Source: Clostridia bacterium (GTDB taxonomy: Bacteria > Bacillota > Clostridia > Christensenellales > UBA1242). From it: 64,000 nucleotides of DNA. Below are positions 2,350 to 47,588 of this stretch, piece by piece. The notes under the pieces are model-generated. The model worked only from the letters and a program-made list of their open reading frames with translations, was not told the DNA's origin and made no database searches. Position 1 is the stretch's first letter; the number at the start of each line of letters is the position of its first letter. Location of the stretch: contig JBAXZR010000001.1 in assembly GCA_041670165.1 (NCBI GenBank), forward strand, positions 52,930-116,929, read 5' to 3'. Position numbers and translations under genes: made by a program.

Positions 2350-3672
2350 ATGGATACAAAAGGTAAAAAAATTGGCGCAATTTCACTTGGCTGTGACAAA
2401 AATCGTGTTGACCTTGAAAAAATGCTTTTTCAGTTAAAAGAAAACGGATTTGAAATTGTTGCAAATGAAGAAGATGCAAATTTAATCATAATTAACACAT
2501 GCGCATTTATTGAGATTGCAAGAAAAGAAAGCATTCAAACAATTTTGGATATTTGTGCATTAAAGGATAAGGGATCACTTGAAAAAATCATTGTAACGGG
2601 TTGTTTGCCTCAAAAAAATTTTGAAGAAATGAAAACTGCAATTCCTGAAGTCGATGCATTTTTAAAAATTAAAGACAATGAACGAATTGTTGAAGAAGTT
2701 TGTAAATTATTGAGTATTGAAAATTACAAAATTAAGAAAAGTAAATCAAAACTGCAAAGAATTTTAACAACCGTTCCGTCATACGCATTTTTAAAAATTT
2801 CTGATGGTTGCAACAACTTCTGTTCTTATTGCACAATTCCAAGAATTAGAGGCAGATATACTTCTGTTCCAATGAATGAGCTTATTGATGAAGCAATTGA
2901 ATTGGCTAACAAAGGTGTTAAAGAGCTTGTGATAATTGCTCAAGATATAACAAGATACGGTTCAGATTTGCCAGAACAAACAACTTTAATTGAGCTTATT
3001 CACAGGCTCAGCAACATTGATGGAATTGAATGGATAAGACTTCATTATTGTTATCCAGAGAAAGTTGATGATGAACTTTTAAACGAAATTAAGAACAATC
3101 CAAAAGTATGTAAGTATATTGATGTTCCATTTCAACACATTGACGATGAAATTTTGAAAAGCATGAACAGAAGATCCAATGAAGAGCAAATTCGAACTCT
3201 TGTAAAAAAGATTAGAACTTCTTATCCAGAAATTGCCATAAGAACAACTTTTATTATTGGACTCCCAGGGGAAACAAGAAAAGCCTTTAAAAAACTTTGT
3301 GAATTTGTTAAGGAAAGTAGTTTTGAAATGGCTGGTTTCTTTGCTTATTCAAGAGAAGAGGGTACAAAAGCATATTACATGCCAAAACAAGTTAACAATT
3401 TCATCAAATATCTAAGACTTAAAAAAATTAATAAAATTCAAGCTACTTCACTTAACAAATTTATATCAAAAATTGTTGGACAAGAATACAAAGTTTTGGT
3501 AGACTCATTTGATGAAGAAAAAATGGAAGCAACTGGTAGAACAGAATTTTTTTCACCAGAAGTTGATTTTGTGATTAAATTTCCTTCAAAAAATATTTTG
3601 GTTTCTGGAGAATATGTTTTGGTTAAAATCACACAATATGATATGGATAACTTTAAAGGAGAAATCGTATGA
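2350..3672 (+). CDS. rimO: Ribosomal protein S12 methylthiotransferase RimO (MiaB-family radical SAM, with TRAM domain)
   Basis: N-terminal KIGAISLGCDKNRVD, radical-SAM motif CNNFCSYCTIPRIRG, C-terminal TRAM-like segment. The track ORF starts at TTG 2329, but ATG 2350 fits the family N-terminus. It sits in the rimO-pgsA-cinA-recA context. Confidence 0.85.
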   Translation: MDTKGKKIGAISLGCDKNRVDLEKMLFQLKENGFEIVANEEDANLIIINTCAFIEIARKESIQTILDICALKDKGSLEKIIVTGCLPQKNFEEMKTAIPEVDAFLKIKDNERIVEEVCKLLSIENYKIKKSKSKLQRILTTVPSYAFLKISDGCNNFCSYCTIPRIRGRYTSVPMNELIDEAIELANKGVKELVIIAQDITRYGSDLPEQTTLIELIHRLSNIDGIEWIRLHYCYPEKVDDELLNEIKNNPKVCKYIDVPFQHIDDEILKSMNRRSNEEQIRTLVKKIRTSYPEIAIRTTFIIGLPGETRKAFKKLCEFVKESSFEMAGFFAYSREEGTKAYYMPKQVNNFIKYLRLKKINKIQATSLNKFISKIVGQEYKVLVDSFDEEKMEATGRTEFFSPEVDFVIKFPSKNILVSGEYVLVKITQYDMDNFKGEIV

Positions 3673-18467: not shown

Positions 18468-19505
18468 TTATCTTAATTGAATTTTTCCAGCAGCATCTCT
18501 ACGAATGTCTTCACTTATAGCAGCATAATGCTTTTTGGTGGTGTTGACATCTTTATGCCCAAGAATATCCGCAACAACATATATATCTTTTGTTTCACGA
18601 TACAAATTTGTGCCAAATGTGCTTCTCAATTTGTGGGGAGAAATATTTTTTAATGGTGAAGCAATAAGAGCAAATTTTTTAACCAAATTTTCTACAGCTC
18701 TTGGACAAATTCTTTTTTTCTGTAAGCTTAAAAACAAGGCTGGTTGAGAGTCATTTGGTTGCAGAATTGTTTTTCTGAAATCAATCCAACATTTTAGTGC
18801 ATCAGCCACTTCATCAGAAAAATATAAAACAACTTGATTACCGCCTTTTCTTGTGATTTTGAAAGCATTTGCTTCAAAATCAATGTCTGAAACATTTAAT
18901 CCAACGCATTCACTTATTCTAACTCCAGTTCCAAGAAACAAGGAGAGCATGGCAACATCACGCACACTTGTTTTATTCAAAAATTCTTTTTGCTTTTTTG
19001 AAAGTCCATTACCATTTTCAGCAACATTAAGAATTGAAGCAACTTCATTAATTTCTAATCGAATAATATCTTTTTGATGAAGTTTTGGGAGTTTAACTTT
19101 TGTGGTTTCATTTGAGGCTATTAGGTCTTTGTTAAATAAAAATTGAAAAAATTTACGAATTGAAGATAGTTTACGACTTTTACCTCTTTCTGTGTTTATA
19201 AAAGTTTTTCCTTTAACACTATACCTTGAGATATAACTTAAAAAATATTCAATTTGTGTAGATTTAATAGTTGAAAGTTGGCTAAGTGTTATTTGCTTAA
19301 TTGATGAGTCAAAAATTTTTGATGACAAAAAAGAGAAAAAGCATTTCAAATCTCTTGCATAGCCGAGTCTTGTAAGTTCAGAAGTGCATTGTTCAATTGA
19401 TATAAAAAAATCAAAGCAAAATGAGGGCAGAGTAGAAATGATTTTGCTTGTATCTTCATTTGCATTATTAGCTCTTGTAACAAAATAATCATCACTTTTT
19501 TTCAT
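18468..19505 (-). CDS. Tyrosine recombinase / integrase (XerC/XerD-like)
   Basis: C-terminal catalytic pattern ...HKLRSTFGT...ILGHKDVNTTKKHY, N-terminal SAM-like core-binding domain. Start moved to ATG 19505 (MKKSDDYF), because the longer track ORF runs through the serS promoter. Confidence 0.85.
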   Translation of the reverse strand: MKKSDDYFVTRANNANEDTSKIISTLPSFCFDFFISIEQCTSELTRLGYARDLKCFFSFLSSKIFDSSIKQITLSQLSTIKSTQIEYFLSYISRYSVKGKTFINTERGKSRKLSSIRKFFQFLFNKDLIASNETTKVKLPKLHQKDIIRLEINEVASILNVAENGNGLSKKQKEFLNKTSVRDVAMLSLFLGTGVRISECVGLNVSDIDFEANAFKITRKGGNQVVLYFSDEVADALKCWIDFRKTILQPNDSQPALFLSLQKKRICPRAVENLVKKFALIASPLKNISPHKLRSTFGTNLYRETKDIYVVADILGHKDVNTTKKHYAAISEDIRRDAAGKIQLR

Positions 19506-19602
19506 GTTATAACATGTTAACATAATTATAAAAAAAAGTCTAATTGCTACTTTATTAAAATTTAATTCTTGCCCATAAAAAGGCTTAAAAAGCAAAACTT
19601 TG

Positions 19603-19631
19603 TTGACATAATCGTTCTCCTTAGATATAAT
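19603..19631 (+). promoter_or_regulatory. Consensus SigA promoter for serS
   Basis: TTGACA (19603-19608), 17-nt spacer, TATAAT (19626-19631), then AAGGAGA SD and ATG 19651. Confidence 0.65.
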
Positions 19632-19650
19632 TAGACAAGGAGATGACAAT

Positions 19651-20889
19651 ATGATTTCACTAGATTTAATTAGAAATGAAACACAAAAAGTTAAAGAAAT
19701 GCTTGGATATAGAAATGATAATGTTGACATTGATCGTTTGCTTGAACTAGATACAGAATATCGTTCTGCTCTTAAAGATTTGGAATCTCTTCAGGCAAAA
19801 AGAAATGAATTAGCAAAAATTGGAAATGCAAGTGTTGCAGAAATTGCAAAAGCATTGAAGGCTCAAATTGTTCAAGTTTCAGCTTTGGTTGATAATTTGC
19901 TTTCTGAAAGAAACAAAATTTGGTCTATTGTGCCAAATATGCTTGATGAACGAGTTCCACAAGGCAAAAGTGATGCCGACAATGTTGAAATTAAAAGAGT
20001 AGGAACTCCACGCAAATTTACATTTGAACCAAAATGGCATGATGAACTTGCAACAAAACTTGGAATTTTAGATGTTAAAAATGGCATTAAGGTTTCAGCA
20101 AGTGGCTTTTTATATTGGATTGGAGATGGAGCTAGGCTTCAAAGAGCAATGTTTAATTTTGCACAAGATTTCTTGCTTCAAAGAGGCTTTACACTTTTAA
20201 CAACACCATTACTTGCTCGAAAAGAAACTTTTTTTGGCACTGGTTACTTGCCATTTGCAGGTGATCAACTATACACTGTAGGGGATACAGGTTTGTCGCT
20301 GATTGGAACAAGTGAACAAACACTTGTTGGATTTCATGCAGGTGAAACTATCGATTTAACAAAAGGTGCAATTTTGTATACTGCATTAACTCCTTGTTTC
20401 AGAACTGAAGCTGGTTCATATGGAAAAGAAACAAAAGGTGTATTTAGAGTTCATCAATTTTCAAAAGTTGAGCAAATTGTTTTCTGCAAGCCTGAAGAAT
20501 CAAGAAAATGGCACAATTTTTGTCTTGAGAATGAAGAAACTTTGTTTCAAAAGCTTGGTTTGCCATATAGAGTTGTGAATGTTTGCACAGGAGATCTTGG
20601 AGCTCCAGCTAGCATGAAATATGATATTGAAGGATTTTTTCCAGCCTACAATGGTTACAGAGAACTCACTTCAAATTCAAATTTATTAGATTTTCAAACA
20701 AGAAGATTGAATGTAAAATTTAAAAATGGAGATAAATCAGAATATCCTCACACAATTAGTGCAACAGGTATCACAGAAAGGGCAATGCTTGCAATTTTAG
20801 AAAATTATCAAAATGAAGACGGAAACATTACAATTCCTGAAGTGCTTGTTCCTTACATGGGTGGACAAACAATTATCACAAAAAAATAA
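19651..20889 (+). CDS. serS: Seryl-tRNA synthetase
   Basis: N-terminal coiled-coil arm (MISLDLIRNE...), class II motifs (FRVHQFSKVE, GTSEQT...). Confidence 0.95.
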   Translation: MISLDLIRNETQKVKEMLGYRNDNVDIDRLLELDTEYRSALKDLESLQAKRNELAKIGNASVAEIAKALKAQIVQVSALVDNLLSERNKIWSIVPNMLDERVPQGKSDADNVEIKRVGTPRKFTFEPKWHDELATKLGILDVKNGIKVSASGFLYWIGDGARLQRAMFNFAQDFLLQRGFTLLTTPLLARKETFFGTGYLPFAGDQLYTVGDTGLSLIGTSEQTLVGFHAGETIDLTKGAILYTALTPCFRTEAGSYGKETKGVFRVHQFSKVEQIVFCKPEESRKWHNFCLENEETLFQKLGLPYRVVNVCTGDLGAPASMKYDIEGFFPAYNGYRELTSNSNLLDFQTRRLNVKFKNGDKSEYPHTISATGITERAMLAILENYQNEDGNITIPEVLVPYMGGQTIITKK

Positions 20890-21847: not shown

Positions 21848-22248
21848 AATAGAGGTTAGAAAGCCTTTATTTTTTTAATTTTTTATAAGATAAAAAAATG
21901 TTTAAAATAAACATTTTACTAATTGTAGTTTAGTTTTATATTTATAATATGTTAGTTTTTCAAAATTCAAAATATAAAAGATTATTAGCTTAAATTAATT
22001 TTAAAATATAGATAATATTATAAACCACAATGATTTTGTGTTTTACCTTTGGTTAACTATTCGTAAAAGCTGTCTTTTGCGAATAGTTGTTCGTGCTAAT
22101 TTTTTAATAAAAATACTACCCTATACTAAATACAAACATTGAAATGTTTGATAAATATATATAAAAAATTTCAAATAACTAAAATAATTTGTATATAATT
22201 TTTAAAATTTTTCTAAAACAAAAATATACATATCTATCAATATTTTTT

Positions 22249-22457
22249 ACAAACTTTCTTATATTAAATTTTTTATTACTTTTTAAGTAAAATATTTACG
22301 AACTTTTTAAATGATTTATACATACTTTCTAAAATAAACACAAACTTTCTTATATATTTTTACAATTTTTATTATATGATTTTAAAACTGACTTGTAATA
22401 AATAAATTAGACAAACTTTCTTAAAATTTTCAATTTTTTTTCATACTTCAAAAATAA
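22249..22457 (+). repeat. Cluster of six same-orientation imperfect direct repeats, core ACAAACTTTCTTA
   Basis: ACAAACTTTCTTAT at 22249 and 22340, ACAAACTTTCTTA at 22411, and variants ACGAACTTTTTAA (22298), ACATACTTTCTAA (22320), TCATACTTCAAAA (22441). Spacing is irregular: 49, 22, 20, 71 and 30 nt. Confidence 0.5.
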
Positions 22458-22592
22458 TTTTTAAAGCTAGAAAAAGTATTAATACCTTGCAATTGATTTA
22501 AGTTTTTTAACATTTTGCATTTTTCTAACTTTTATCATTTTAAAAGATTTAAAAGTATTTCAAAATATTTTAAATTTTTTAGTTTGAATATA

Positions 22593-34262: not shown

Positions 34263-36668
34263 TTAACTTCTAAGAATTGCACCAAATTTATATTGTGCAT
34301 CTTTTAAGATTTTTCTCATTGGATCATTAATTTCTTCATCAGTGAGAGTTTTTATCATGCTGGAAAATCTAATTTTAAATGCTAAACTTTTTTTCTCTTT
34401 TCCAAGGTTTTCACTTCTATATATATCAAACAATTCGCAAGAAGCAAAATTTTGTCCTGCAGATTTTTTGATTGAATCAAGAAGTGTTTGAACTGTTATT
34501 TTTTCATCAACAACAAATGCCAAATCTCTTTCAATTGTAGGAAAACGGGAAATGTTTTTAACAACATAAGTTCTTGGTGCAAGTTTGTTTAGTAAGTCCA
34601 AATTAAACTGGGCATAATAAGTTGAAGAATCAATATCAAAGTTTTTTGCAACTGTTGGGTGAACTTTGCCCCAGAATGCAAGTTTTTCTCCTGTTTTAAC
34701 ATCTAAATATTCAGCTGAAATTCCTGTATGCAAGAAAACTTCCGTTCCTCTTTGAAGGCTAATTTCAACATCAAACATTCTTAAAACTTTTTCAATTATT
34801 GATTTGAAAGTGTAAAAATCTTCATCAGTATTTGAAGAAGTGAAAGAAAGGAAGTTCGATTCAACTGGAAGCTCTTTTAATGGCAAAGATGAAGGAATGT
34901 AAGTCCTTCCGCATTCAAACAATTTGAGTGAAAAATTGCCTCTGCTTTGATTTAAACGAACGCAAGAAAGTGCACTGCCAACAAGAGTTGTTCTTATTGA
35001 ACCTATATCATCAGAAATTGGATTTAAAATTTCAATAACTTTGTTTTCAGGGGCATCTTTTCCAAATAGTAACATTTCTGGAATTTTTTTGTCACAAATT
35101 GAATAGTTTATTGTTTCAAAAAATCCATAATCAACAAGCAAATTCTTGATTTTGTTTTGAAGAGCAATCATTGAATCTTGCTTGCCCTTGGTTGGAGTTG
35201 CATTTTGAAGAAGTGTAGGTTCAATTGAATCATAAACGCTATAACCAAACAATCTTATAAATTCTTCAGCAATGTCAGCACTGTTTTCAATGTCAGATCT
35301 AAATGAAGGAACTTCACAAAGTACCTTATCTCCATCAACTTTTGTTTCAATTCCAAGACTATTCATAATTTGTTCAAGTTTTTTTGCTTCAACTTTTATT
35401 CCAAGAGTTTTTTCAATTGATAAAATGCTACCAACAACTTTTTTGTTGCCAACAAAGCCGTTAACCTTGTCAATAACTGGGCTTGCGATTTCTCCAGCAC
35501 CAAAATGAGTGAGTAGATTTAATGCTCTATTCATTCCAATTTCAGCTGAGCCAATATCAACGCCCTTTTCAAATCTAACAGATGAGTCTGTTCTTACTCC
35601 AATTTTTCTTGAAGTTAAACGAATGCTTCTTCTTTCAAAAACAGCAGACTCAAAAACAATTGTTTTTGTGGATTCTGAAATTCCACTATCAACTCCGCCA
35701 ATAATACCCGCAACAACCATTGCTTCTTTTTCGTTAGCAATCACCAACATTTCGTCTGTTAAAACATGTTCTTTTTTATCAAGTGTTAACAATTTTTCGT
35801 TGTTTTTTGCATTTCTAATAATGATTTGATTTCCAATAATTTTTTCATAATCAAAAGCATGCATTGGTTGACCGCATTCAATAAGTACATAATTTGTTAT
35901 ATCAACAATGTTATTTACGGGATTTATGCCAGAAGCAAGCAACCTTGCCTTAACCCAAAGTGGAGACTCATTAATTTTGATATTATCTGCAACAACTGCT
36001 ATATATCTTGAACAGAGTTCTTTGTTTTCAATGTTAACTGAAAGAGGTTTTTCGCTTTTTGTTGAAAGAGTGAAAGAATCATTAAAAGGTTTCATTGGCA
36101 AATCAAATAATGCTGAAACTTCTCTTGCAATTCCAAGTATACTCATGCAGTCAGGACGGTTTGCAGTAACATTAATGTCAAAAATTATGTCATCAAGTCC
36201 AAGGGCTTGAGCAACAGAAGTTCCAAGTTTAAACTCATCTTTGAAAATTAAAATTCCATGAGTAGAAGCTCCTTCATAAAAAGCATCAGTAATTCCTAGT
36301 TCTTCACCAGAACAAAACATTCCATCAGAACTAACTCCTCTAAGCACACTTGGTTTAATTTTTATTCCATTGGCAAGTGAAGCTCCATCAAGTGAAACAG
36401 GAACTAAAGCTCCTTCAAAAACATTTGTTGCACTTGTGATTATCTGAACGAAAGACGAACCAAGATTAACTTTGCAAACAACAAGTGAATCAGCATTTGG
36501 GTGCTTTTCAATTTTTTCAATTTGTCCAACAAAAACCTGACCAAGAAATTCATCTTGGTGCAAAATCTCTTCAACTTCAAAACCGGCACTTGTTAGTTTT
36601 GATGCAATAACATTTTCATTTTCTTTTATATCAACAAAATCTTTTAACCATTTCAAAGATATTTTCAT
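34263..36668 (-). CDS. pheT: Phenylalanyl-tRNA synthetase beta subunit
   Basis: N-terminal tRNA-binding OB domain (MKISLKWLKDFVD), B3/4 and B5 regions, C-terminal FDX-ACB-like domain. Follows pheS. Confidence 0.95.
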   Translation of the reverse strand: MKISLKWLKDFVDIKENENVIASKLTSAGFEVEEILHQDEFLGQVFVGQIEKIEKHPNADSLVVCKVNLGSSFVQIITSATNVFEGALVPVSLDGASLANGIKIKPSVLRGVSSDGMFCSGEELGITDAFYEGASTHGILIFKDEFKLGTSVAQALGLDDIIFDINVTANRPDCMSILGIAREVSALFDLPMKPFNDSFTLSTKSEKPLSVNIENKELCSRYIAVVADNIKINESPLWVKARLLASGINPVNNIVDITNYVLIECGQPMHAFDYEKIIGNQIIIRNAKNNEKLLTLDKKEHVLTDEMLVIANEKEAMVVAGIIGGVDSGISESTKTIVFESAVFERRSIRLTSRKIGVRTDSSVRFEKGVDIGSAEIGMNRALNLLTHFGAGEIASPVIDKVNGFVGNKKVVGSILSIEKTLGIKVEAKKLEQIMNSLGIETKVDGDKVLCEVPSFRSDIENSADIAEEFIRLFGYSVYDSIEPTLLQNATPTKGKQDSMIALQNKIKNLLVDYGFFETINYSICDKKIPEMLLFGKDAPENKVIEILNPISDDIGSIRTTLVGSALSCVRLNQSRGNFSLKLFECGRTYIPSSLPLKELPVESNFLSFTSSNTDEDFYTFKSIIEKVLRMFDVEISLQRGTEVFLHTGISAEYLDVKTGEKLAFWGKVHPTVAKNFDIDSSTYYAQFNLDLLNKLAPRTYVVKNISRFPTIERDLAFVVDEKITVQTLLDSIKKSAGQNFASCELFDIYRSENLGKEKKSLAFKIRFSSMIKTLTDEEINDPMRKILKDAQYKFGAILRS

Positions 36669-36679
36669 TCGCTTACTCC

Positions 36680-37699
36680 TTACTTCATCTGACTCAAGAA
36701 TCTTATGTCATTTTCAAACATCATTCTTAAATCTGGAACTTTGTTTTCAACCATCGCAAGTCTGTCAACTCCTGGACCAAAAGCAAATCCAGAATATTTT
36801 GTGCTGTCAATTCCACAATTTTCAAGCACTTTTGGATTTACCATTCCTGCTCCCAAAAGTTCCATCCAACCAGTACCTTTGCAACGAGTGCAACCATTTC
36901 CACCACAGTTTGGACATGTGCAGTCAACTTCAACACTTGGCTCAGTAAATGGGAAATATGAAGGTCTAAATCTGATTTTTGTGTTTTCACCAAACAACAT
37001 TCTAAGTAAGTTCGTGAGCATGCTTTTCAAGTCAACAAGTGAAACCTTTTCATCAACAACAAGTCCTTCAAATTGATGGAACATTGGTGTGTGCGTTGGG
37101 TCATTGTCAACTCTGTATGTTTTTCCTGGTGAAACAATTTTGAATGGTGGTTTTCTTTTTTCCATTTCATGAATTTGAACACTTGAAGTTTGTGTTCTAA
37201 GCATAATATTTTGAGCAAGATAAAAAGAATCTTGCATATCTCTTGCTGGGTGGTCCTTTGGAACATTTAAAGCTTCAAAATTGTAATAATCGGTTTCAAT
37301 TTCTGGTCCAGAAACAACTTCAAATCCAAGTTCAACGCACGCCTCTATAAGTTTGTTGAAAGTGCGTGTGAGAGGGTGCAAAGCTCCAATTTCATGCTTC
37401 TTAGCGGGTTCTGTTATGTCTATACTTTCTGTCGCTAGAGCTTTTTCAAGTTCTTGTTTAGAAAGATTTGTTTCTAGTTCAGCAATCTTTTCTTCAATTG
37501 TTTGTCTTGCCTCATTCACAAGTGCTCCAACAATTGGTCTATCCTCTGCTGAAACATCTTTCATTCCACGCAAAATTGAAGTAAGCAATCCTTGTTTACC
37601 TAAATATTTTACTTTTAAATTTTGAGCTTCAACAGTGGATTTTACGCTCAAAATCTCCTGAAAAAATACTTGTAAAATTTGTTCAATTTTTTCTTTCAT
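36680..37699 (-). CDS. pheS: Phenylalanyl-tRNA synthetase alpha subunit
   Basis: Class II core motifs (HPARDMQDSFY, FRPSYFPFTEPS, GAGMVNP). AAGGAGAA SD. Confidence 0.95.
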   Translation of the reverse strand: MKEKIEQILQVFFQEILSVKSTVEAQNLKVKYLGKQGLLTSILRGMKDVSAEDRPIVGALVNEARQTIEEKIAELETNLSKQELEKALATESIDITEPAKKHEIGALHPLTRTFNKLIEACVELGFEVVSGPEIETDYYNFEALNVPKDHPARDMQDSFYLAQNIMLRTQTSSVQIHEMEKRKPPFKIVSPGKTYRVDNDPTHTPMFHQFEGLVVDEKVSLVDLKSMLTNLLRMLFGENTKIRFRPSYFPFTEPSVEVDCTCPNCGGNGCTRCKGTGWMELLGAGMVNPKVLENCGIDSTKYSGFAFGPGVDRLAMVENKVPDLRMMFENDIRFLSQMK

Positions 37700-37963
37700 G
37701 TTTTCTCCTTATAATTAAAAAAAACTTCGCCCCTAAATATTAGGGCGAAGAAGTTAAATTCGCTGTACCACCTAATTTCTTGCAAATAAATTTGCAACTC
37801 TTTAAGCCTTTTACGCAGGCAAACGCCAATTCTTACTATTAGTTCAGAAAAGGTGCTAGAAAGTGAATTCAAATTTATGATTATGCTTTGTCTTTCAGCC
37901 CATGAACAAAGCTCTCTAAAAAACCATTTTGTAAATTTTACTAGTCTTTCATCTTCGCATTTT
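37700..37963 (-). promoter_or_regulatory. T-box leader (tRNA-Phe-responsive) with terminator/antiterminator
   Basis: The - strand carries AGAGAG, a GAA-UUC-A specifier context (UUC is the complement of plus 37865-37867), the T-box sequence AATTAGGTGGTACAGCGAA (plus 37759-37777), and the terminator CTTCGCCCTAA/TTAGGGGCGAAG followed by a T8 run (plus 37717-37750). Confidence 0.85.
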
Positions 37964-37969
37964 CAATGA

Positions 37970-40399: not shown

Positions 40400-40873
40400 T
40401 TATTCCACTGGAATAATTTTGATATTATCAATAGATTTGCTTGTTTGTTCTTGTATGATTGCAACGATTTGTGAAACTTCACTAGCTTCAAGTGCATCAA
40501 TACTCCTAACAATTACATTAATATTGTTTGTGCTACTTGTAACAATGACATCATTAAAACCTTTTGCTTTAATAAGACCTTCCATAACAAGTTCTGATTC
40601 AATTGCTTGAACAAGTTGAACTCTCTTTGTTTCTGCAACAGATTTTGCATCAGCACTGCTTGATTCACTTGCAATAATTGCATCAAGATAAGCTATTTCT
40701 TGATTTCTTGTTGACAATCTGTCAGTGCGATATGTTGCAAAAAAATTTGTGTCAGTTATGTTTGCACTTGTATCAACCACGCGGTTATTTAATGTAATAT
40801 TCAAATAACCAGTTACCACCAAAAGCACCGCCATTGTGATAAGAACAAATATTTTTTTCTTTTTACTAAGCAT
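40400..40873 (-). CDS. spoIIIAH: Stage III sporulation protein AH
   Basis: N-terminal TM anchor and a C-terminal YscJ/FliF-like region (ELVMEGLIKAKGFNDVIV). Last gene of the spoIIIA operon. Confidence 0.8.
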   Translation of the reverse strand: MLSKKKKIFVLITMAVLLVVTGYLNITLNNRVVDTSANITDTNFFATYRTDRLSTRNQEIAYLDAIIASESSSADAKSVAETKRVQLVQAIESELVMEGLIKAKGFNDVIVTSSTNNINVIVRSIDALEASEVSQIVAIIQEQTSKSIDNIKIIPVE

Positions 40874-40931
40874 TTTTTCAAAATCTCCTTTCTTGTTTAA
40901 ATGGTATGAACTGAACTATCATTTTAGAACA

Positions 40932-41444
40932 CTAATTTCCAGTTAATATTTCAATGTTTCCTGAAGAAATAGATAAAAGTGCTTGAATAGCTTTTAAAAC
41001 ATTTAATTTAACTGCAACATCACTTGCTCCTGAGCAAACCACAACAGCACCTTTAACTTTTGGGTAGACTTCTTTGATTACAATTTGACCATTTGAACCA
41101 AGTTCTGATTGGGCTTCTTCAAGACTAGAAAAAAATTTTTCTTCATCTTCAGAAGCAAACTTATATTCGCTTCCGTTTTCCAAGGTTATCATCACATTAA
41201 CACTTCCCGCTCCTTGAATGCTTGTAATGATGTTCTCAAGCCTTTTTTCCAAATTTTCTACATATTCAAATGTGAGTGAAGTTTCTGAAGTTGTTGTGCT
41301 TGTCGAGGTGAAAGAAGAAATGAAAATTACCAAGATTATTGCAAAAGCAAGTAACACAACTGCAATTTGAACATTTTTGTTGCTTTTAATAAATTCGACA
41401 AATTTTGTGCTTCCAAGTAAACTCTTTTTATCTTTTTCACTCAT
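40932..41444 (-). CDS. spoIIIAG: Stage III sporulation protein AG
   Basis: TM anchor plus a ring-building domain (GAGSVNVMITLENGSEYKFA...VKGAVVVCSGA). Confidence 0.85.
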   Translation of the reverse strand: MSEKDKKSLLGSTKFVEFIKSNKNVQIAVVLLAFAIILVIFISSFTSTSTTTSETSLTFEYVENLEKRLENIITSIQGAGSVNVMITLENGSEYKFASEDEEKFFSSLEEAQSELGSNGQIVIKEVYPKVKGAVVVCSGASDVAVKLNVLKAIQALLSISSGNIEILTGN

Positions 41445-41928
41445 CTATTATTATCATATCCTCCTTGACCCCAGTTATATTTATTATTGTTTTTTTCACA
41501 AGGGCTAACATATCTATATGTTCTTGTTCTGAATTTATGACTACTTGTCCAACATCAATTACCACATAAGAAATTTTGAAGTCTGTTTCAAAAATGTTTG
41601 ATTGAACATCAACAATAACTCCACTTATCCCTTGCATCTCCAAACTAGAAACAATGTTTTTTTCAATAGCTTCTTTTTTTTGTTCATTAACAATACCAAT
41701 AAATTCTGTTTGAATACTATTTGTATAATCGCTTCCAAAAAAAGCTTCAAAGTCAAATGAACCATTAAAAAGCTTTGGTAGAGGCGAAATAATGACAAAA
41801 ACAACAATAAAAGAATAAACAACTTTTACATATTTTTGCATTTGTCCTTCTGGAAGCACAAGATCTAGCACAACTCCCATAACTGCAATTCCTGCAATAC
41901 TCAAAATCCAACTTGAAAAAGCAGACAT
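41437..41928 (-). CDS. spoIIIAF: Stage III sporulation protein AF
   Basis: MSAFSSWILSIAGIAVMGVVLDLVLPEG.MQKYVK pattern. Start set at ATG 41928, which has a GGAG SD; the longer track ORF overlaps spoIIIAE. Confidence 0.85.
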   Translation of the reverse strand: MSAFSSWILSIAGIAVMGVVLDLVLPEGQMQKYVKVVYSFIVVFVIISPLPKLFNGSFDFEAFFGSDYTNSIQTEFIGIVNEQKKEAIEKNIVSSLEMQGISGVIVDVQSNIFETDFKISYVVIDVGQVVINSEQEHIDMLALVKKTIINITGVKEDMIIIDE

Positions 41929-41942
41929 ATTTTCATCTCCTT

Positions 41943-43136
41943 TCAAAAAACATTTGCTGTGCACATAATAAGACCTGTTGTAAGCAAAAACATGAACGAA
42001 ACGCAAATAAGAATTGCAACAAGCAGAGTGCATGTTTTTGCAACTGTATGAACAAAATTTGCAGTTCTACTATCAGCTAATGGTTCAAGAATTGCCGATG
42101 CCAAATGCATGCTTAAAGAAAAAATTAAAATTTTAATTATTGGAACAGCAATTGTGGCAAAAAGTAACATAAGTCCAGCAGCTCCAACAGCATTTTTAAT
42201 GAGAACACTGCTTGCCATAATGACATTAAATCCATCGGAAAGATAGCCACCAACAATTGGAATATATGACCTAATTGCGAACTTTGCAGTTCTGATTGAA
42301 ACACCATCAAGTGATGAGGCAGTTATGCCCTGAATGCTTAAAAATGCAATAAAAATTGTAAAAGAAGTCCCAAGTATCCACTTGAAACAAGATGAGAAAA
42401 ATGAAACAAATTTTTCAAATTTAAAGCTTGATGACAAATTTGAAAGAACAGAAAATATAAGAATAAATATAAAAATTGGCATAAGAACTGAAGTTCCAAT
42501 TTGAACAATACCGCCACTTAGCACAGCAACCATGGGTTGATAAACACTCACAGAAACACTACCACCAATTGTTGTCATCAAAGTTAATAGAATTGGAAAA
42601 ATTGCGTCCATTTCTTCTTTTAACAAGTTTAGTGTGCTTGTTGTCATTCCAATCATTTGTCTAACAACATTCATAACAAGCAAAATAACCACACCATAAC
42701 AAACAAAATGTACAATATCACCTGTTGCCTTGCTTCCTAATCTTGACCTAATATTAGAAACAAAACCGCATAAAATTGAAATTGAAACAATGGTTGCAAC
42801 CAATGGTAAAAAAATCAAAATATCATCAAATACTAATGCAAGTATTGCAGAAAAAAAATTCTTTCCGTTTTCTGAAAATTCACCAGAAAGAATATTCATC
42901 AAAAATTCAGAAAAATTTTTGTTTCCAAATATTTCGTATTCTTGTTCGCCAATGCTTGCTAAAATTTTTTCTATTTCTGAAATATCTAGTCCACCTAGTT
43001 GTCCGTCAATCGTGTCTTCAATTTCTGATTCAATGTCACTGGTTTCATCAGCATAGGCAGTTACAGTTGTTTTGAAAAAGGAAAGAACTAACAAAGAAGA
43101 AAGTATAATCATGATTACTAGAAAAATTTTTTTCAT
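41943..43136 (-). CDS. spoIIIAE: Stage III sporulation protein AE
   Basis: Signal peptide followed by a polytopic membrane protein of typical size; operon position. Confidence 0.9.
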   Translation of the reverse strand: MKKIFLVIMIILSSLLVLSFFKTTVTAYADETSDIESEIEDTIDGQLGGLDISEIEKILASIGEQEYEIFGNKNFSEFLMNILSGEFSENGKNFFSAILALVFDDILIFLPLVATIVSISILCGFVSNIRSRLGSKATGDIVHFVCYGVVILLVMNVVRQMIGMTTSTLNLLKEEMDAIFPILLTLMTTIGGSVSVSVYQPMVAVLSGGIVQIGTSVLMPIFIFILIFSVLSNLSSSFKFEKFVSFFSSCFKWILGTSFTIFIAFLSIQGITASSLDGVSIRTAKFAIRSYIPIVGGYLSDGFNVIMASSVLIKNAVGAAGLMLLFATIAVPIIKILIFSLSMHLASAILEPLADSRTANFVHTVAKTCTLLVAILICVSFMFLLTTGLIMCTANVF

Positions 43137-43519
43137 GGTAGCAACCCTGCCACAATAGAAATAATATTTGTAATTATTGGAAGTGAAACAACCAAAATAA
43201 TAATTTTTCCAGCAAGCAAAATTTTGTCAGCAAGGCTACTTGAACCACTATCATTGCAAATTGATGCGGCAAATTCGGTTATGTAACCAATTCCAACAAT
43301 TTTTAGCACTGAACCAAATATTTGTATTGATAGTCCGCTTTTTTCTGCTATTGTTTTAAAAATTTGTAGAACCGAAGTAAGCTGGTTAACAACCATAAGA
43401 ATAATAATTATTCCGCCAGCAACTCCAACAAGTGTCGCAATTTCTGGCTTTGTTGTTTTGAGAATAATCATTGCAACTGCAGTAGCAATTCCAATGCCAA
43501 CAATTTTAAAAATTTCCAC
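43133..43519 (-). CDS. spoIIIAD: Stage III sporulation protein AD
   Basis: 128-aa membrane protein beginning MEIFKIVGIGIATAV; operon position. Confidence 0.9.
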   Translation of the reverse strand: MEIFKIVGIGIATAVAMIILKTTKPEIATLVGVAGGIIIILMVVNQLTSVLQIFKTIAEKSGLSIQIFGSVLKIVGIGYITEFAASICNDSGSSSLADKILLAGKIIILVVSLPIITNIISIVAGLLP

Positions 43520-43535
43520 TTGTTTTTTGCTCCTT

Positions 43536-43724
43536 TTAAAAACTGAACATGCTTCTAACCGTGTCGAATAGCTCTTTAACTAGGCTAAGAACCATCAAAA
43601 GAACAATAATAAGCCCCGCAAGAGTTGAGAGCGTTGCAATTTCCTCTTTTCCTGAGTGTTTCAACACTTGATTCACAACTGCTGTCAAAATGCCAACAGC
43701 AGCAATCTTAAAAATTATATCCAC
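43536..43724 (-). CDS. spoIIIAC: Stage III sporulation protein AC
   Basis: 62-aa two-TM protein, IFKIAAVGILTAVVNQVLKHSGKEE. Confidence 0.9.
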   Translation of the reverse strand: MDIIFKIAAVGILTAVVNQVLKHSGKEEIATLSTLAGLIIVLLMVLSLVKELFDTVRSMFSF

Positions 43725-43739
43725 GCTCGTTTATCCCCC

Positions 43740-44237
43740 TTACATTAGGATCAATGCAATCAATATCCCAAATAAAATGCCAAGTTTAAATATTAAAGAT
43801 CCAAATTTCTCATTTTCCTTTTTAGAATTTTGACTGCAATCATAAAAATGTTTTTTAAAGTTTTCTAAGCTTGCAACTTGATTGCTGCTGTTAAATTTTC
43901 CTAAAGAAAGGAAAAAAGGAAATATAAATTGTTTTTCATCAGTGCTTAAAAACCAGATTCCAGCGAACATATCTTTTTCTTGAAGCGATTTTGAACTGCT
44001 AAGTAAAAATTGTTCAAAGTAATTAATAACTTGAGAAAATTCTTTTCCAAAATTTTGCCCTTTCTCAGCAACAATTTTTTTTAATTTGTTTTCAAAAAAA
44101 TTGATTTCTAGTTGAAGTGAACAAATGAAAGAATGTATATCAAAATAAAATTTTTCTCTTTTTCTATAATATCCGCTTATGGAATAACCAAGAAATGAAC
44201 AAGAAGCAACAATCAAAATAAGCAAAACGAATTTCAT
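43740..44237 (-). CDS. spoIIIAB: Stage III sporulation protein AB
   Basis: 165 aa with TM helices at both the N- and C-termini; operon position between AA and AC. Confidence 0.8.
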   Translation of the reverse strand: MKFVLLILIVASCSFLGYSISGYYRKREKFYFDIHSFICSLQLEINFFENKLKKIVAEKGQNFGKEFSQVINYFEQFLLSSSKSLQEKDMFAGIWFLSTDEKQFIFPFFLSLGKFNSSNQVASLENFKKHFYDCSQNSKKENEKFGSLIFKLGILFGILIALILM

Positions 44238-44240
44238 TTA

Positions 44241-45152
44241 TCACCCAAATTGTCCCACTCGTTCAAAGTTTTCATTATAAATTCCTTCGAATGTTCCAAC
44301 CCCATTAGATTTTGAGAGTATCACAAATCTTTCAAAACATTTGTCTTGTAAAAGCTTCTGAAAGTCAGGTTTGTTTCTAAGTTCTTTCAAATTGTTTGCA
44401 TGAATACTTGCAACAACCTTAACTCCGCAGTGAGATGCCATCATAACAGAATTGTAATCTTCTTCACCCATGAGTTCATCAGCCACAATAACATCAGGAT
44501 TCATACTTCGTACACCTTGTTCAAATCCATCATTTTTTGAAGAGAATGAAAGCACATCGCAAAATTTTCCAATATCAAATCCGCTATTAGTTCCTGCGAT
44601 TTCTCCCCTTTCATCAAGAACAAGAACATTAAAAGAAAAATTTCGATTTGAAAGTTGCCAAACAAAATCTCTCAAAAATGTTGTTTTTCCTGCACCGGGT
44701 GGAGAAATTACAAGTGTGTTAAAAATTTTGCCTTGTTCAACAATTTGATTGAAAGCAGTTAGAGAACAATTTTTGATTTGATGAGGAACACGAATATTAA
44801 TACTTGTGAAATCTTTCATTGTTTTAATTAAGCCATTTTCATGTACAACAGTTCCACAAACACCCATTCTAATGCCACCAGTCAGGCTTATAAAGCCTCG
44901 TTTAAGTTGTTCGTTTACGGCATAGAGTGAACATTCACTGGCTCTAAAAACAATGTCTTCAATCATTTCTTTTGTTGCAATAATGGCGGTGTTTGGTTCT
45001 CCTGTAAGCCCAGTCGAACTTAGAAAATATGAAACCATTCCAATGCAAACAACAACTGGTTTGTCGCATCTAAGTCGAATTTCATTGATTTTTGATATTC
45101 CAATTTTTTCAAGCAAAATTTCTTCCATTTGCGGATTGAAAATGTTTTTCAT
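44241..45152 (-). CDS. spoIIIAA: Stage III sporulation protein AA (secretion-type ATPase)
   Basis: Walker A SPPGAGKTT, Walker B VIVADEL. First gene of the operon. Confidence 0.9.
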   Translation of the reverse strand: MKNIFNPQMEEILLEKIGISKINEIRLRCDKPVVVCIGMVSYFLSSTGLTGEPNTAIIATKEMIEDIVFRASECSLYAVNEQLKRGFISLTGGIRMGVCGTVVHENGLIKTMKDFTSINIRVPHQIKNCSLTAFNQIVEQGKIFNTLVISPPGAGKTTFLRDFVWQLSNRNFSFNVLVLDERGEIAGTNSGFDIGKFCDVLSFSSKNDGFEQGVRSMNPDVIVADELMGEEDYNSVMMASHCGVKVVASIHANNLKELRNKPDFQKLLQDKCFERFVILSKSNGVGTFEGIYNENFERVGQFG

Positions 45153-46302: not shown

Positions 46303-46491
46303 ATGAGCAGAGTTTGTGAAATTTGTGGTAAAGGAAAGATGCCTGGTTGCACAGTAAGCTTTTCAAACCGTAAGGCCAATCGCCAATATGAAGTAAATTT
46401 GCAATCAACAACAGTTGAAATTGATGGCAAGCTTAAAAAAGTTAAAGCTTGTACAAAATGCAAAAAAACACTTGCCAAGTATGCTAAGTGA
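46303..46491 (+). CDS. rpmB: 50S ribosomal protein L28
   Basis: MSRVCEICGKGKMPGCTVSFSNRKANRQYEVNLQ; GGAGGAA SD. Confidence 0.95.
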   Translation: MSRVCEICGKGKMPGCTVSFSNRKANRQYEVNLQSTTVEIDGKLKKVKACTKCKKTLAKYAK

Positions 46492-46493
46492 TT

Positions 46494-46528
46494 AAAAACA
46501 AGCCAAAATTTTAAGGCTTGTTTTTTTT
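46494..46528. terminator. Bidirectional terminator shared by rpmB (+) and the small ORF (-)
   Basis: AACAAGCC (46497-46504) pairs with GGCTTGTT (46515-46522), followed by T8 on the + strand and T5 on the - strand. Confidence 0.8.
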
Positions 46529-46542
46529 ATCTTATGTATACT

Positions 46543-46614
46543 CTATTGCTTTTTAATAAAAAGCTTAAGAAGAAAAGAAATTAATTTGGGAACTTTTATA
46601 CAAACAATTTTCAT
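46543..46614 (-). CDS. spoVM: Probable stage V sporulation protein M (23-aa amphipathic peptide)
   Basis: Hand translation gives MKIVCIKVPKLISFLLKLFIKKQ*. SD AAAGGAGAA with 5-nt spacing. It shares M1 K2, I6 K7 and P9 K10 with B. subtilis SpoVM as I remember it (MKFYTIKLPKFLGG...). It occupies the same rpe/rpmB position as B. subtilis spoVM. Too short for the ORF track. Confidence 0.65.
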   Translation of the reverse strand: MKIVCIKVPKLISFLLKLFIKKQ

Positions 46615-46863
46615 TTGTTCTCCTTTATTATTCAATTATATGTAAAAGTTTGTTCTTTGGTGATTGATTAAATTTAATAAAAAGTAAGTAAATGCATTTA
46701 TTAATTGAAACAATTACTTTTCGTTTCAATTTAAAACATATTAATAAAAATTGTAAATCATGAGAATTGCCATAATTTAACAATTATGAAAATTAATTTG
46801 GATATGTAAGAAATAAATTATTTTTTTATGAAAATAAGCTATATAAACTAGTTTTTTTTTAAT

Positions 46864-46888
46864 TAAAAAAATTGACTTGTTGTCAATT
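46864..46888 (-). terminator. Rho-independent terminator after rpe
   Basis: The - strand reads AATTGAC-aacaa-GTCAATT followed by T7. Confidence 0.65.
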
Positions 46889-46925
46889 TTTAATGTTAAT
46901 TTTTGTAGTCTATGCTCAGTTTTGC

Positions 46926-47588
46926 CTATCTAAGGGAATCAATTGACTCTTTAGGATTTGAACTTAAAAACAAATAACTACCGCTAACAACAATGTCAGC
47001 CCCGCAAGACTTAATTTCTTCTGTGTTTTCGGGATTAACTCCACCATCAACTTCAATTAAAAATTTAAAATTGTTTTGTTCTCTAAAAGTATTTAGTGAT
47101 TTTATTTTTGATAAAGATGAAGGAATAAATAATTGACCGCTTTTTCCGGGTTCAACACTCATGACAAGAACCAAATTGCATAGTGGCAAAAAATCATATA
47201 TTTCTGAAACTAATGTTTGTGGTTTAAAACTAATTCCTGCAAGTGCTCCAAGCTTTTTAATGTTTTCTAAACACTCAATTACTTCACTTTTTTTTCCGAA
47301 ACTTTCATAATGCACAGTTATGATATTTGCTCCAGCTTTAATATATTCTTTAACATGTTCTTCAGGGTGAACAATCATTAAATGAGCTTCAATTGGAACA
47401 ATACAATTTGAGTTAATTTGTTTAACAAAAGAAGCATCATATGTTATTTCTGAAACAAAATTGCCGTCCATAACATCACAATGAATAAAATCAGCCCCTG
47501 CTTCTTGAAGAGCTTTTGCATATTCAATAACCTGAGATTTAATTTTTACTGGGTGCGTTGAAGGTGCAATTCTAAGCTTTTTTACCAT
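46926..47588 (-). CDS. rpe: Ribulose-phosphate 3-epimerase
   Basis: HCDVMDGNFV, MSVEPGKSGQ, DGGVN motifs. Confidence 0.93.
   Translation of the reverse strand: MVKKLRIAPSTHPVKIKSQVIEYAKALQEAGADFIHCDVMDGNFVSEITYDASFVKQINSNCIVPIEAHLMIVHPEEHVKEYIKAGANIITVHYESFGKKSEVIECLENIKKLGALAGISFKPQTLVSEIYDFLPLCNLVLVMSVEPGKSGQLFIPSSLSKIKSLNTFREQNNFKFLIEVDGGVNPENTEEIKSCGADIVVSGSYLFLSSNPKESIDSLR

Follow-up and report, generated by a model that had tools for sequence, protein, structure and literature searches.

A 23-codon open reading frame between rpe and rpmB is very probably the spoVM gene of a Christensenellales-like Clostridia genome

The rpe-rpmB locus and its surroundings

The DNA analyzed here, called the window, is a stretch of 64,000 nucleotides with a GC content of 30% in which short open reading frames (ORFs) occur in the thousands. 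One of these, 23 codons long and carried by the minus strand, lies between rpe and the convergent rpmB gene and was missed by the gene callers, as the initial annotation had expected for an ORF of this size. The features relevant to its interpretation are the following.

46926-47588, minus strand: rpe, encoding ribulose-phosphate 3-epimerase (Pfam and NCBIfam), the conserved upstream neighbor of spoVM
46867-46891, minus strand: terminator hairpin of rpe followed by a U-run (MFE -8.4 kcal/mol, centroid -8.1 kcal/mol, z -4.4)
46659..46664, minus strand: predicted -35 element ATCACC, with 'AC' at 46661-46660, 17 nt upstream of CATA; spacing and sequence of SigK type
46642-46635, minus strand: predicted -10 element CATATAAT of the mother-cell-sigma type, ending 20 nt before the ATG
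46626-46618, minus strand: Shine-Dalgarno sequence AAAGGAGAA, the 9-mer ending 3 nt and its AGGAG core 5 nt before the ATG
46614..46543, minus strand: proposed spoVM coding sequence, 23 codons and a stop, translated as MKIVCIKVPKLISFLLKLFIKKQ; ATG at 46614, stop codon at 46545-46543
46494-46525, both strands: bidirectional intrinsic terminator common to spoVM (minus) and rpmB (plus), with an 11-bp stem, a 10-nt loop and a flanking A-run and T-run
46303-46491, plus strand: rpmB, encoding ribosomal protein L28 (Pfam and NCBIfam), the conserved convergent neighbor of spoVM
40400..45152, minus strand: near-complete spoIIIA operon, in which AA, AB, AC/AD, AE, AF and AH were recognized, 1.4 kb from the spoVM ORF

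The translation of the ORF is exactly the one that had been derived by hand in the initial annotation. The strong Shine-Dalgarno sequence that it described is present as well, the stated distance of 5 nt being that of the AGGAG core and not of the full 9-mer, a minor difference of wording. GGAGG-type sites are found at the same spacing in front of the homologous ORFs of related genomes. A longer form of 30 amino acids, starting at an in-frame TTG (46635), was considered and rejected since the Shine-Dalgarno sequence supports the ATG and the homologs align from that codon. A phmmer search with this extended form as query returned 0 matches in 1.84 billion proteins; this result is uninformative because so short a query cannot reach E <= 1e-3 in such a collection and because gene callers rarely emit ORFs of this length.

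The unit had been described as bracketed by a terminator of rpe on one side and a bidirectional terminator of rpmB on the other, and direct folding identified both as real hairpins. The hairpin at 46494-46525 begins 3 nt past the rpmB stop codon and 18 nt past that of the short ORF. It is regarded as bidirectional because it folds on the minus strand (dG -14.5 kcal/mol, z -4.5) and on the plus strand (dG -13.6 kcal/mol, z -3.9) with A/T runs on either side. The weaker rpe terminator is situated 35 nt past the rpe stop codon and keeps the rpe transcript apart from spoVM. A consensus scan for sigma-70 promoters and terminators flagged no promoter at the ORF and neither of the bracketing terminators, the latter owing to the rules it applies to G-C and loop length. 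The spacer separating rpe from spoVM amounts to 311 nt and does not contain thiN. No Rfam family overlaps the spoVM locus.

The neighboring genes rsgA, rpe, rpmB, efp and spoIIIAA/AB were identified by Pfam and NCBIfam models; farther upstream are fmt, def and priA, along with rlmN, which was assigned by eye from its radical-SAM sequence. The spoIIIA operon shows that the host carries the core sporulation machinery. An ORF occupying the spoIIIAG position (40932-41444, minus strand) had no Pfam match at 1e-4. Over 43740-45152 (minus strand), SpoIIIAA and SpoIIIAB score below their NCBIfam cutoffs (246 versus 281 bits and 49 versus 147 bits, respectively). Sporulation proteins are generally divergent in this lineage and would therefore be under-counted by annotation-based sporulation calls. 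Neither SpoIVA nor sigE nor sigK was encountered among the larger ORFs of the window that were scanned with Pfam.

Other observations concern more distant parts of the window. A T-box leader (108.9 bits) at 37738-37964 on the minus strand is located upstream of an ORF at 36680-37699, which itself precedes pheT (34263-36668), and is presumably the pheST T-box. An ORF of 420 amino acids encoding a tyrosine recombinase of the phage integrase family (18468-19730, minus strand) adjoins serS, with an overlap of about 80 nt between its 5' end and the predicted start of serS; it could indicate the boundary of a mobile element or correspond to a Xer-like recombinase. The sequence AAGAAAGTTTGT is present at 22249-22422 on the minus strand in three exact copies, spaced by 91 and 71 nt and found nowhere else in the window. 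They lie in a gene-free AT-rich region (21848-22592), 750 nt without any ORF of at least 110 amino acids, and a SigK-type promoter-like match is found at 22396-22371 (minus strand). These repeats could be binding sites for a regulator, or else belong to an unannotated small gene or RNA.

Relationship to SpoVM and conservation in relatives

The similarity of the peptide to SpoVM was assessed independently with hidden Markov models built from only the 26 distinct published SpoVM sequences, or from the 11 clostridial ones among them (Galperin et al. 2012, Fig. S4, PMC3533761). These models were run against 19,992 short ORFs (15-70 amino acids, every start) extracted from the window and from 80 related loci, 2,898 of them from the window. 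The window ORF was matched with E = 7e-5 by the model of all 26 sequences and with E = 4.2e-7 (29.8 bits) by the clostridial model. It is the only significant match among the 2,898 ORFs of the window, the next best having an E-value of at least 2.7, and the window therefore harbors no other spoVM-like ORF by this search. In the complete set, the top 44 matches all correspond to syntenic ORFs downstream of rpe.

Curated models gave a fainter signal. Within NCBIfam, the sole match of the window peptide is NF033436 (SpoVM_broad), with E = 5.9e-4 and 19.8 bits versus a curated cutoff of 31. Pfam PF08183 leaves the window peptide unmatched and recognizes only weakly 3 of the 59 distinct family members collected from relatives. 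At E <= 1, NF033436 matches 36 and PRK14741 matches 21 of these 59 peptides. No member of the clade reaches the curated cutoffs (31 bits for NF033436, 55 bits for PRK14741), the best score being 30.7 bits. The SpoVM sequence of Bacillus subtilis, which the initial annotation had given correctly as judged from Fig. S4 of Galperin et al. (2012), served as a control and scores 63 and 77 bits, above the cutoffs. The low scores of the ORF and of its clade explain why the gene is unannotated. Such cutoffs are a working convention of annotation and do not express a biological property. When a profile of the family was compared with 177,635 PDB sequences, the best match was B. subtilis SpoVM itself (2MVH, E = 0.017), aligned as IKLPKFLGGIVR.

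Related loci were gathered through the adjacent rpe gene, so that the peptide itself had no influence on their selection. Among 185,579 species genomes and a metagenome collection, the closest Rpe proteins are only 46-47% identical to that of the window, and most matches originate from Christensenellales, Christensenellaceae, Candidatus Gallimonas and 'uncultured Clostridia' metagenome-assembled genomes (MAGs). The source lineage is poorly represented in these collections. Since nothing closer was available, codon periodicity across the whole family was used in place of dN/dS between close relatives.

A homologous short ORF on the strand of rpe is present in about 58 of the approximately 72 Clostridia loci, in genomes ranging from 29 to 63% GC, with the start codon and the position conserved. 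It follows rpe at a distance of 40-220 nt or, where a gene for thiamine pyrophosphokinase (thiN/TPK) intervenes as it does in many relatives, of about 600-670 nt, directly abutting that gene; rpmB often follows in the opposite orientation. The genomic slot that the initial annotation had likened to that of B. subtilis is found in the layout of the window and recurs in these relatives. Control loci from Chlorobi and Fibrobacter displayed no comparable ORF after rpe. Over 18 aligned core codons of the 59 distinct sequences, the mean pairwise nucleotide difference at codon positions 1, 2 and 3 is 0.49, 0.24 and 0.64, and synonymous changes account for 35% of the differing codons in the real frame versus 11% and 7% in the other two frames. 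This pattern of codon positions, the synonymous excess and the retention of the ORF across 29-63% GC constitute a protein-coding signature.

Two architectures can be distinguished among the relatives. In one, rpe is followed by spoVM with its own promoter motif; in the other, rpe-thiN-spoVM, the ORF abuts thiN some 600-670 nt after rpe and the motif is undetected (L010, L013, L015, L016, L020-L027, L029-L036, L039, L042-L044 and others). A further observation concerns locus L119 (JGI metagenome contig Ga0172382_10060187), where positions 3211-3282 of the plus strand encode the peptide MKIVCIKCPRAISYIIRLFKKRA; its first 7 residues and its length of 23 amino acids are the same as in the window peptide, although the Rpe proteins are only 36% identical.

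The window peptide retains the residues known to matter in SpoVM. Pro9, which is the single residue common to all SpoVMs and is needed for the recognition of membrane curvature (Ribis et al. 2017, PMC5607322), occurs in it and is invariant in 59/59 family members. K2, I6, I15 and a basic residue at position 17 are also functionally important (PMC5607322), K2 and I6 having this role in B. subtilis; K2 and I6 are identical in the window peptide, which has conservative replacements of I15 by L15 and of R17 by K17. K2 is missing from a subfamily of relatives with 21-amino-acid peptides beginning with MIVC, which often carry a second cysteine near position 12-13 (MIVCIKLPRVLGCIVRLFYKG). With 23 amino acids the window peptide falls within the range of published SpoVMs (21-27), and its net charge (+6 versus +5) and its hydrophobic moment after the proline (0.49 versus 0.46) are near those of B. 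subtilis SpoVM. The initial annotation had called it shorter and more Lys/Leu-rich than the Bacillus protein. The difference in length is real (23 versus 26 amino acids), but the peptide is not unusual on that account, being of the normal clostridial form.

Position 5 sets the family apart. A cysteine is found there in all 59 distinct peptides and in further metagenome members (codon TGT, 46600-46602, in the window), whereas the 26 published SpoVMs never have one: Thr occupies this position in Bacilli and Ala, Thr, Val or Phe in Clostridia.

Promoter class, function and competing readings

The promoter motif of the window spans 46661-46635 on the minus strand. Its -10 element had been noticed in the initial annotation and tentatively attributed to sigmaE or sigmaA. 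The element is there, but a sigmaA promoter was rejected, no TTGACA-like -35 being found at 16-18 nt, and the -35 region matches the SigK rather than the SigE class. Of the 22 loci where the ORF has an intergenic region of its own, 16 carry CATA[TC]A[ACT]T at 20-55 nt before the ATG, GC-rich genomes included. The fuller motif AC-N16/17-CATAnnnT is present in 18 of these 22, no more than 80 nt from the ATG, and in 2 further loci, against a background of about 1% per 80 nt. It typically takes the form GTAACa ... CATATAAT, which is conspicuous even at high GC content, and the SigK-type -35 was noted upstream of the ORF in L001-L004, L007, L009, L011, L019, L028, L040, L046, L049, L050, L052, L053, L062, L063 and L068. 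Among the 38 loci in which thiN or rpe directly adjoins the ORF, only 2 have the motif; in the thiN-abutting sub-clade the peptide may be co-transcribed with rpe-thiN or may use a promoter of a form that the motif does not capture.

Experimentally supported Clostridioides difficile promoters provided the reference sets for sigma classes (Soutourina et al. 2020, Table S6, PMC7438776). The dinucleotide 'AC' precedes xATA by 16-17 nt in 21/27 SigK promoters and in 0/38 SigE promoters; conversely, 'ATA' is found 15-17 nt before xATA in 25/38 SigE and 0/27 SigK promoters. By this C. difficile criterion, which may not be the lineage's own, the conserved spoVM promoter would belong to a mother-cell sigma factor of the SigK class. 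Log-odds of fixed-spacer weight matrices (SigK versus SigE) were positive in 16/19 cases; they are noisy and small for several relatives, and the -35 dinucleotide was relied upon for that reason. As an internal control, spoIIIAA displayed a SigE-type match, ATA-N16-AATACAAT, 34 nt from its ATG; this is weak evidence because a sequence as AT-rich as the window contains about 0.2 such loose matches per 330 nt.

Taken together, profile similarity, key residues, physical properties and synteny make the ORF an orthologue of SpoVM in its ordinary clostridial form. We are highly confident that this is spoVM, as the initial annotation had read it, and that the genome carrying it is that of a low-GC member of the Clostridia resembling Christensenellales. 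The positions that the annotation had listed as shared with B. subtilis (M1 K2, I6 K7, P9 K10) are all identical. By homology, sporulating cells would produce the peptide in the mother cell, using a promoter of the SigE/SigK family, with a -35 region of SigK type in this case. It would kink at Pro9, continue as a short amphipathic helix of cationic character, insert preferentially into the convex outer forespore membrane and tether there SpoIVA, the ATPase of the coat basement. Its predicted function is accordingly that of a curvature-sensing membrane anchor for SpoIVA. The functional or phenotypic weight of the gene may nevertheless be small, since spoVM of C. difficile, which is SigE-dependent, is largely dispensable (Ribis et al. 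2017, PMC5607322).

Other readings of the ORF have to be weighed. In a window of 30% GC with so many short ORFs and with gene callers silent about this one, an open frame might arise by chance in an AT-rich spacer. The coding signature and the search with published SpoVMs exclude such an origin, to which we attach practically no probability: about 58 genomes of up to 63% GC keep the ORF with codon periodicity and a synonymous excess, the Shine-Dalgarno and promoter elements are conserved, and the profile reaches E = 4e-7 with no other match in the window. Almost as improbable is a type I toxin, that is to say a small Fst-like membrane peptide of a toxin-antitoxin locus. Toxins of the Fst/Ldr type (NF033608) are likewise small, hydrophobic, cationic and membrane-active, a description that suits this Lys-rich peptide, and the NF033608 model (type_I_tox_Fst) weakly matches 2/59 family members (best E = 0.014), plausibly on account of the acidic C-terminal tails of the peptides of the L001/L002/L004 type. 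The window peptide, however, matches SpoVM models only, with no Fst match at E <= 10, as SpoVM models match 36/59 of its family; it carries the Pro9 motif. Unlike the mobile and patchy type I loci, its position next to the housekeeping genes rpe, thiN and rpmB is fixed across deep divergence, and neither an antisense RNA family nor a convergent promoter was detected at the locus.

A third alternative accepts the descent from SpoVM and denies the coat role: the peptide would be a small cationic membrane peptide with some other, possibly vegetative, function in a lineage possibly incapable of sporulation. The ORF of most relatives is contiguous with thiN and might share a transcript with housekeeping genes, 36/38 of the thiN- or rpe-abutting loci being devoid of the sporulation-type motif. 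An inability to sporulate is predicted for many Christensenellales MAGs, C. difficile has little need of SpoVM, and the invariant Cys5 occurs in none of the 26 published sequences. Against these points, the window ORF forms a terminator-insulated unit with a promoter of the mother-cell type, a near-complete spoIIIA operon is adjacent, and K2, I6 and P9 are kept. We judge such a derived role improbable, and less likely for this window than for the clade as a whole. A different possibility retains the sporulation role and supposes that the clade possesses a distinct SpoVM variant, in which Cys5 (through acylation, a disulfide, a metal or a contact with SpoIVA) and the SigK-type promoter reflect a rewired timing or mechanism of the coat basement. 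We consider it rather unlikely, yet if it were true, many gut Clostridia scored as non-sporulating would keep a functional and unannotated sporulation micro-gene. The points relating to Cys5, the promoter and the thresholds leave the identity of the element as spoVM unchanged.

Only two coat-morphogenetic proteins are common to Bacilli and Clostridia, and SpoVM is one of them. The protein itself and its being overlooked by annotation are well known. Whether 'distant versions' occur in clostridia where standard searches fail was left open by Galperin et al. (2012, PMC3533761). The novelty of the present findings, of modest interest, resides in a whole Christensenellales-like clade with SpoVMs below curated thresholds, an invariant Cys5 and a SigK-type promoter. 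Because they score under the NCBIfam and Pfam thresholds, these SpoVMs are consistently absent from annotations and, in turn, from gene-content predictions of sporulation capacity built on such annotations. In practice, the sequences offer an improved seed alignment for the family models, together with a rule of synteny placing the gene downstream of rpe or thiN and beside rpmB. Cys5 and the SigK-type promoter are, in addition, hints of a lineage-specific anchoring of the spore coat.

Comparison with known SpoVM systems

The closest counterparts of the window peptide are clostridial SpoVMs of 21-24 amino acids (Galperin et al. 2012, Fig. S4, PMC3533761), with identities of 10-13 of 21-23 residues: those of Clostridium novyi (MKIIAIKVPKFISKIIRLFKKDK, 13/23 identical), C. 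acetobutylicum (MKIVAIKLPKFLSNIIKFFFRKKD, 12/23 identical) and Candidatus Arthromitus (MKIIAIKLPKCLAKIVKIFKK). The window peptide shares with them an N-terminus of the form MKI-x-x-IK-x-PK followed by a Lys/Arg-rich amphipathic C-terminal helix. Their genes, too, had escaped the first annotations and came to light through translated searches (Galperin et al. 2012, PMC3533761). The clade described here differs from them by its invariant Cys5 in place of Ala, Thr, Val or Phe, by curated-model scores below the cutoff and by a Christensenellales-like host instead of Clostridium sensu stricto.

The proximity of spoVM and rpmB is conserved among genomes carrying spoVM (Ribis et al. 2017, PMC5607322). 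The SpoVM of C. difficile, also of clostridial type, likewise adjoins rpmB. Its gene is co-transcribed with the upstream CD25622, encoding 50 amino acids, and is SigE-dependent, whereas the unit of the window appears to be monocistronic, insulated by terminators and preceded by a predicted SigK-type promoter.

In B. subtilis the gene order is rpe-thiN-spoVM with rpmB alongside; the window has the same genomic slot, except for the absence of thiN between rpe and spoVM. The B. subtilis gene depends on SigE and SpoIIID (PMC5607322), as opposed to the SigK-type -35 of the window. Its product (P37817, BSU15810; NMR structure 2MVH) is 26 amino acids long and carries Thr5 and a G13-G14 pair, where the 23-residue window peptide has Cys5 and no such pair. 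Six of the 23 residues are identical, namely M1, K2, I6, K7, P9 and K10, with conservative replacements at positions 3, 8, 11, 12, 15, 16 and 17, and the two peptides are similar in charge and amphipathicity.
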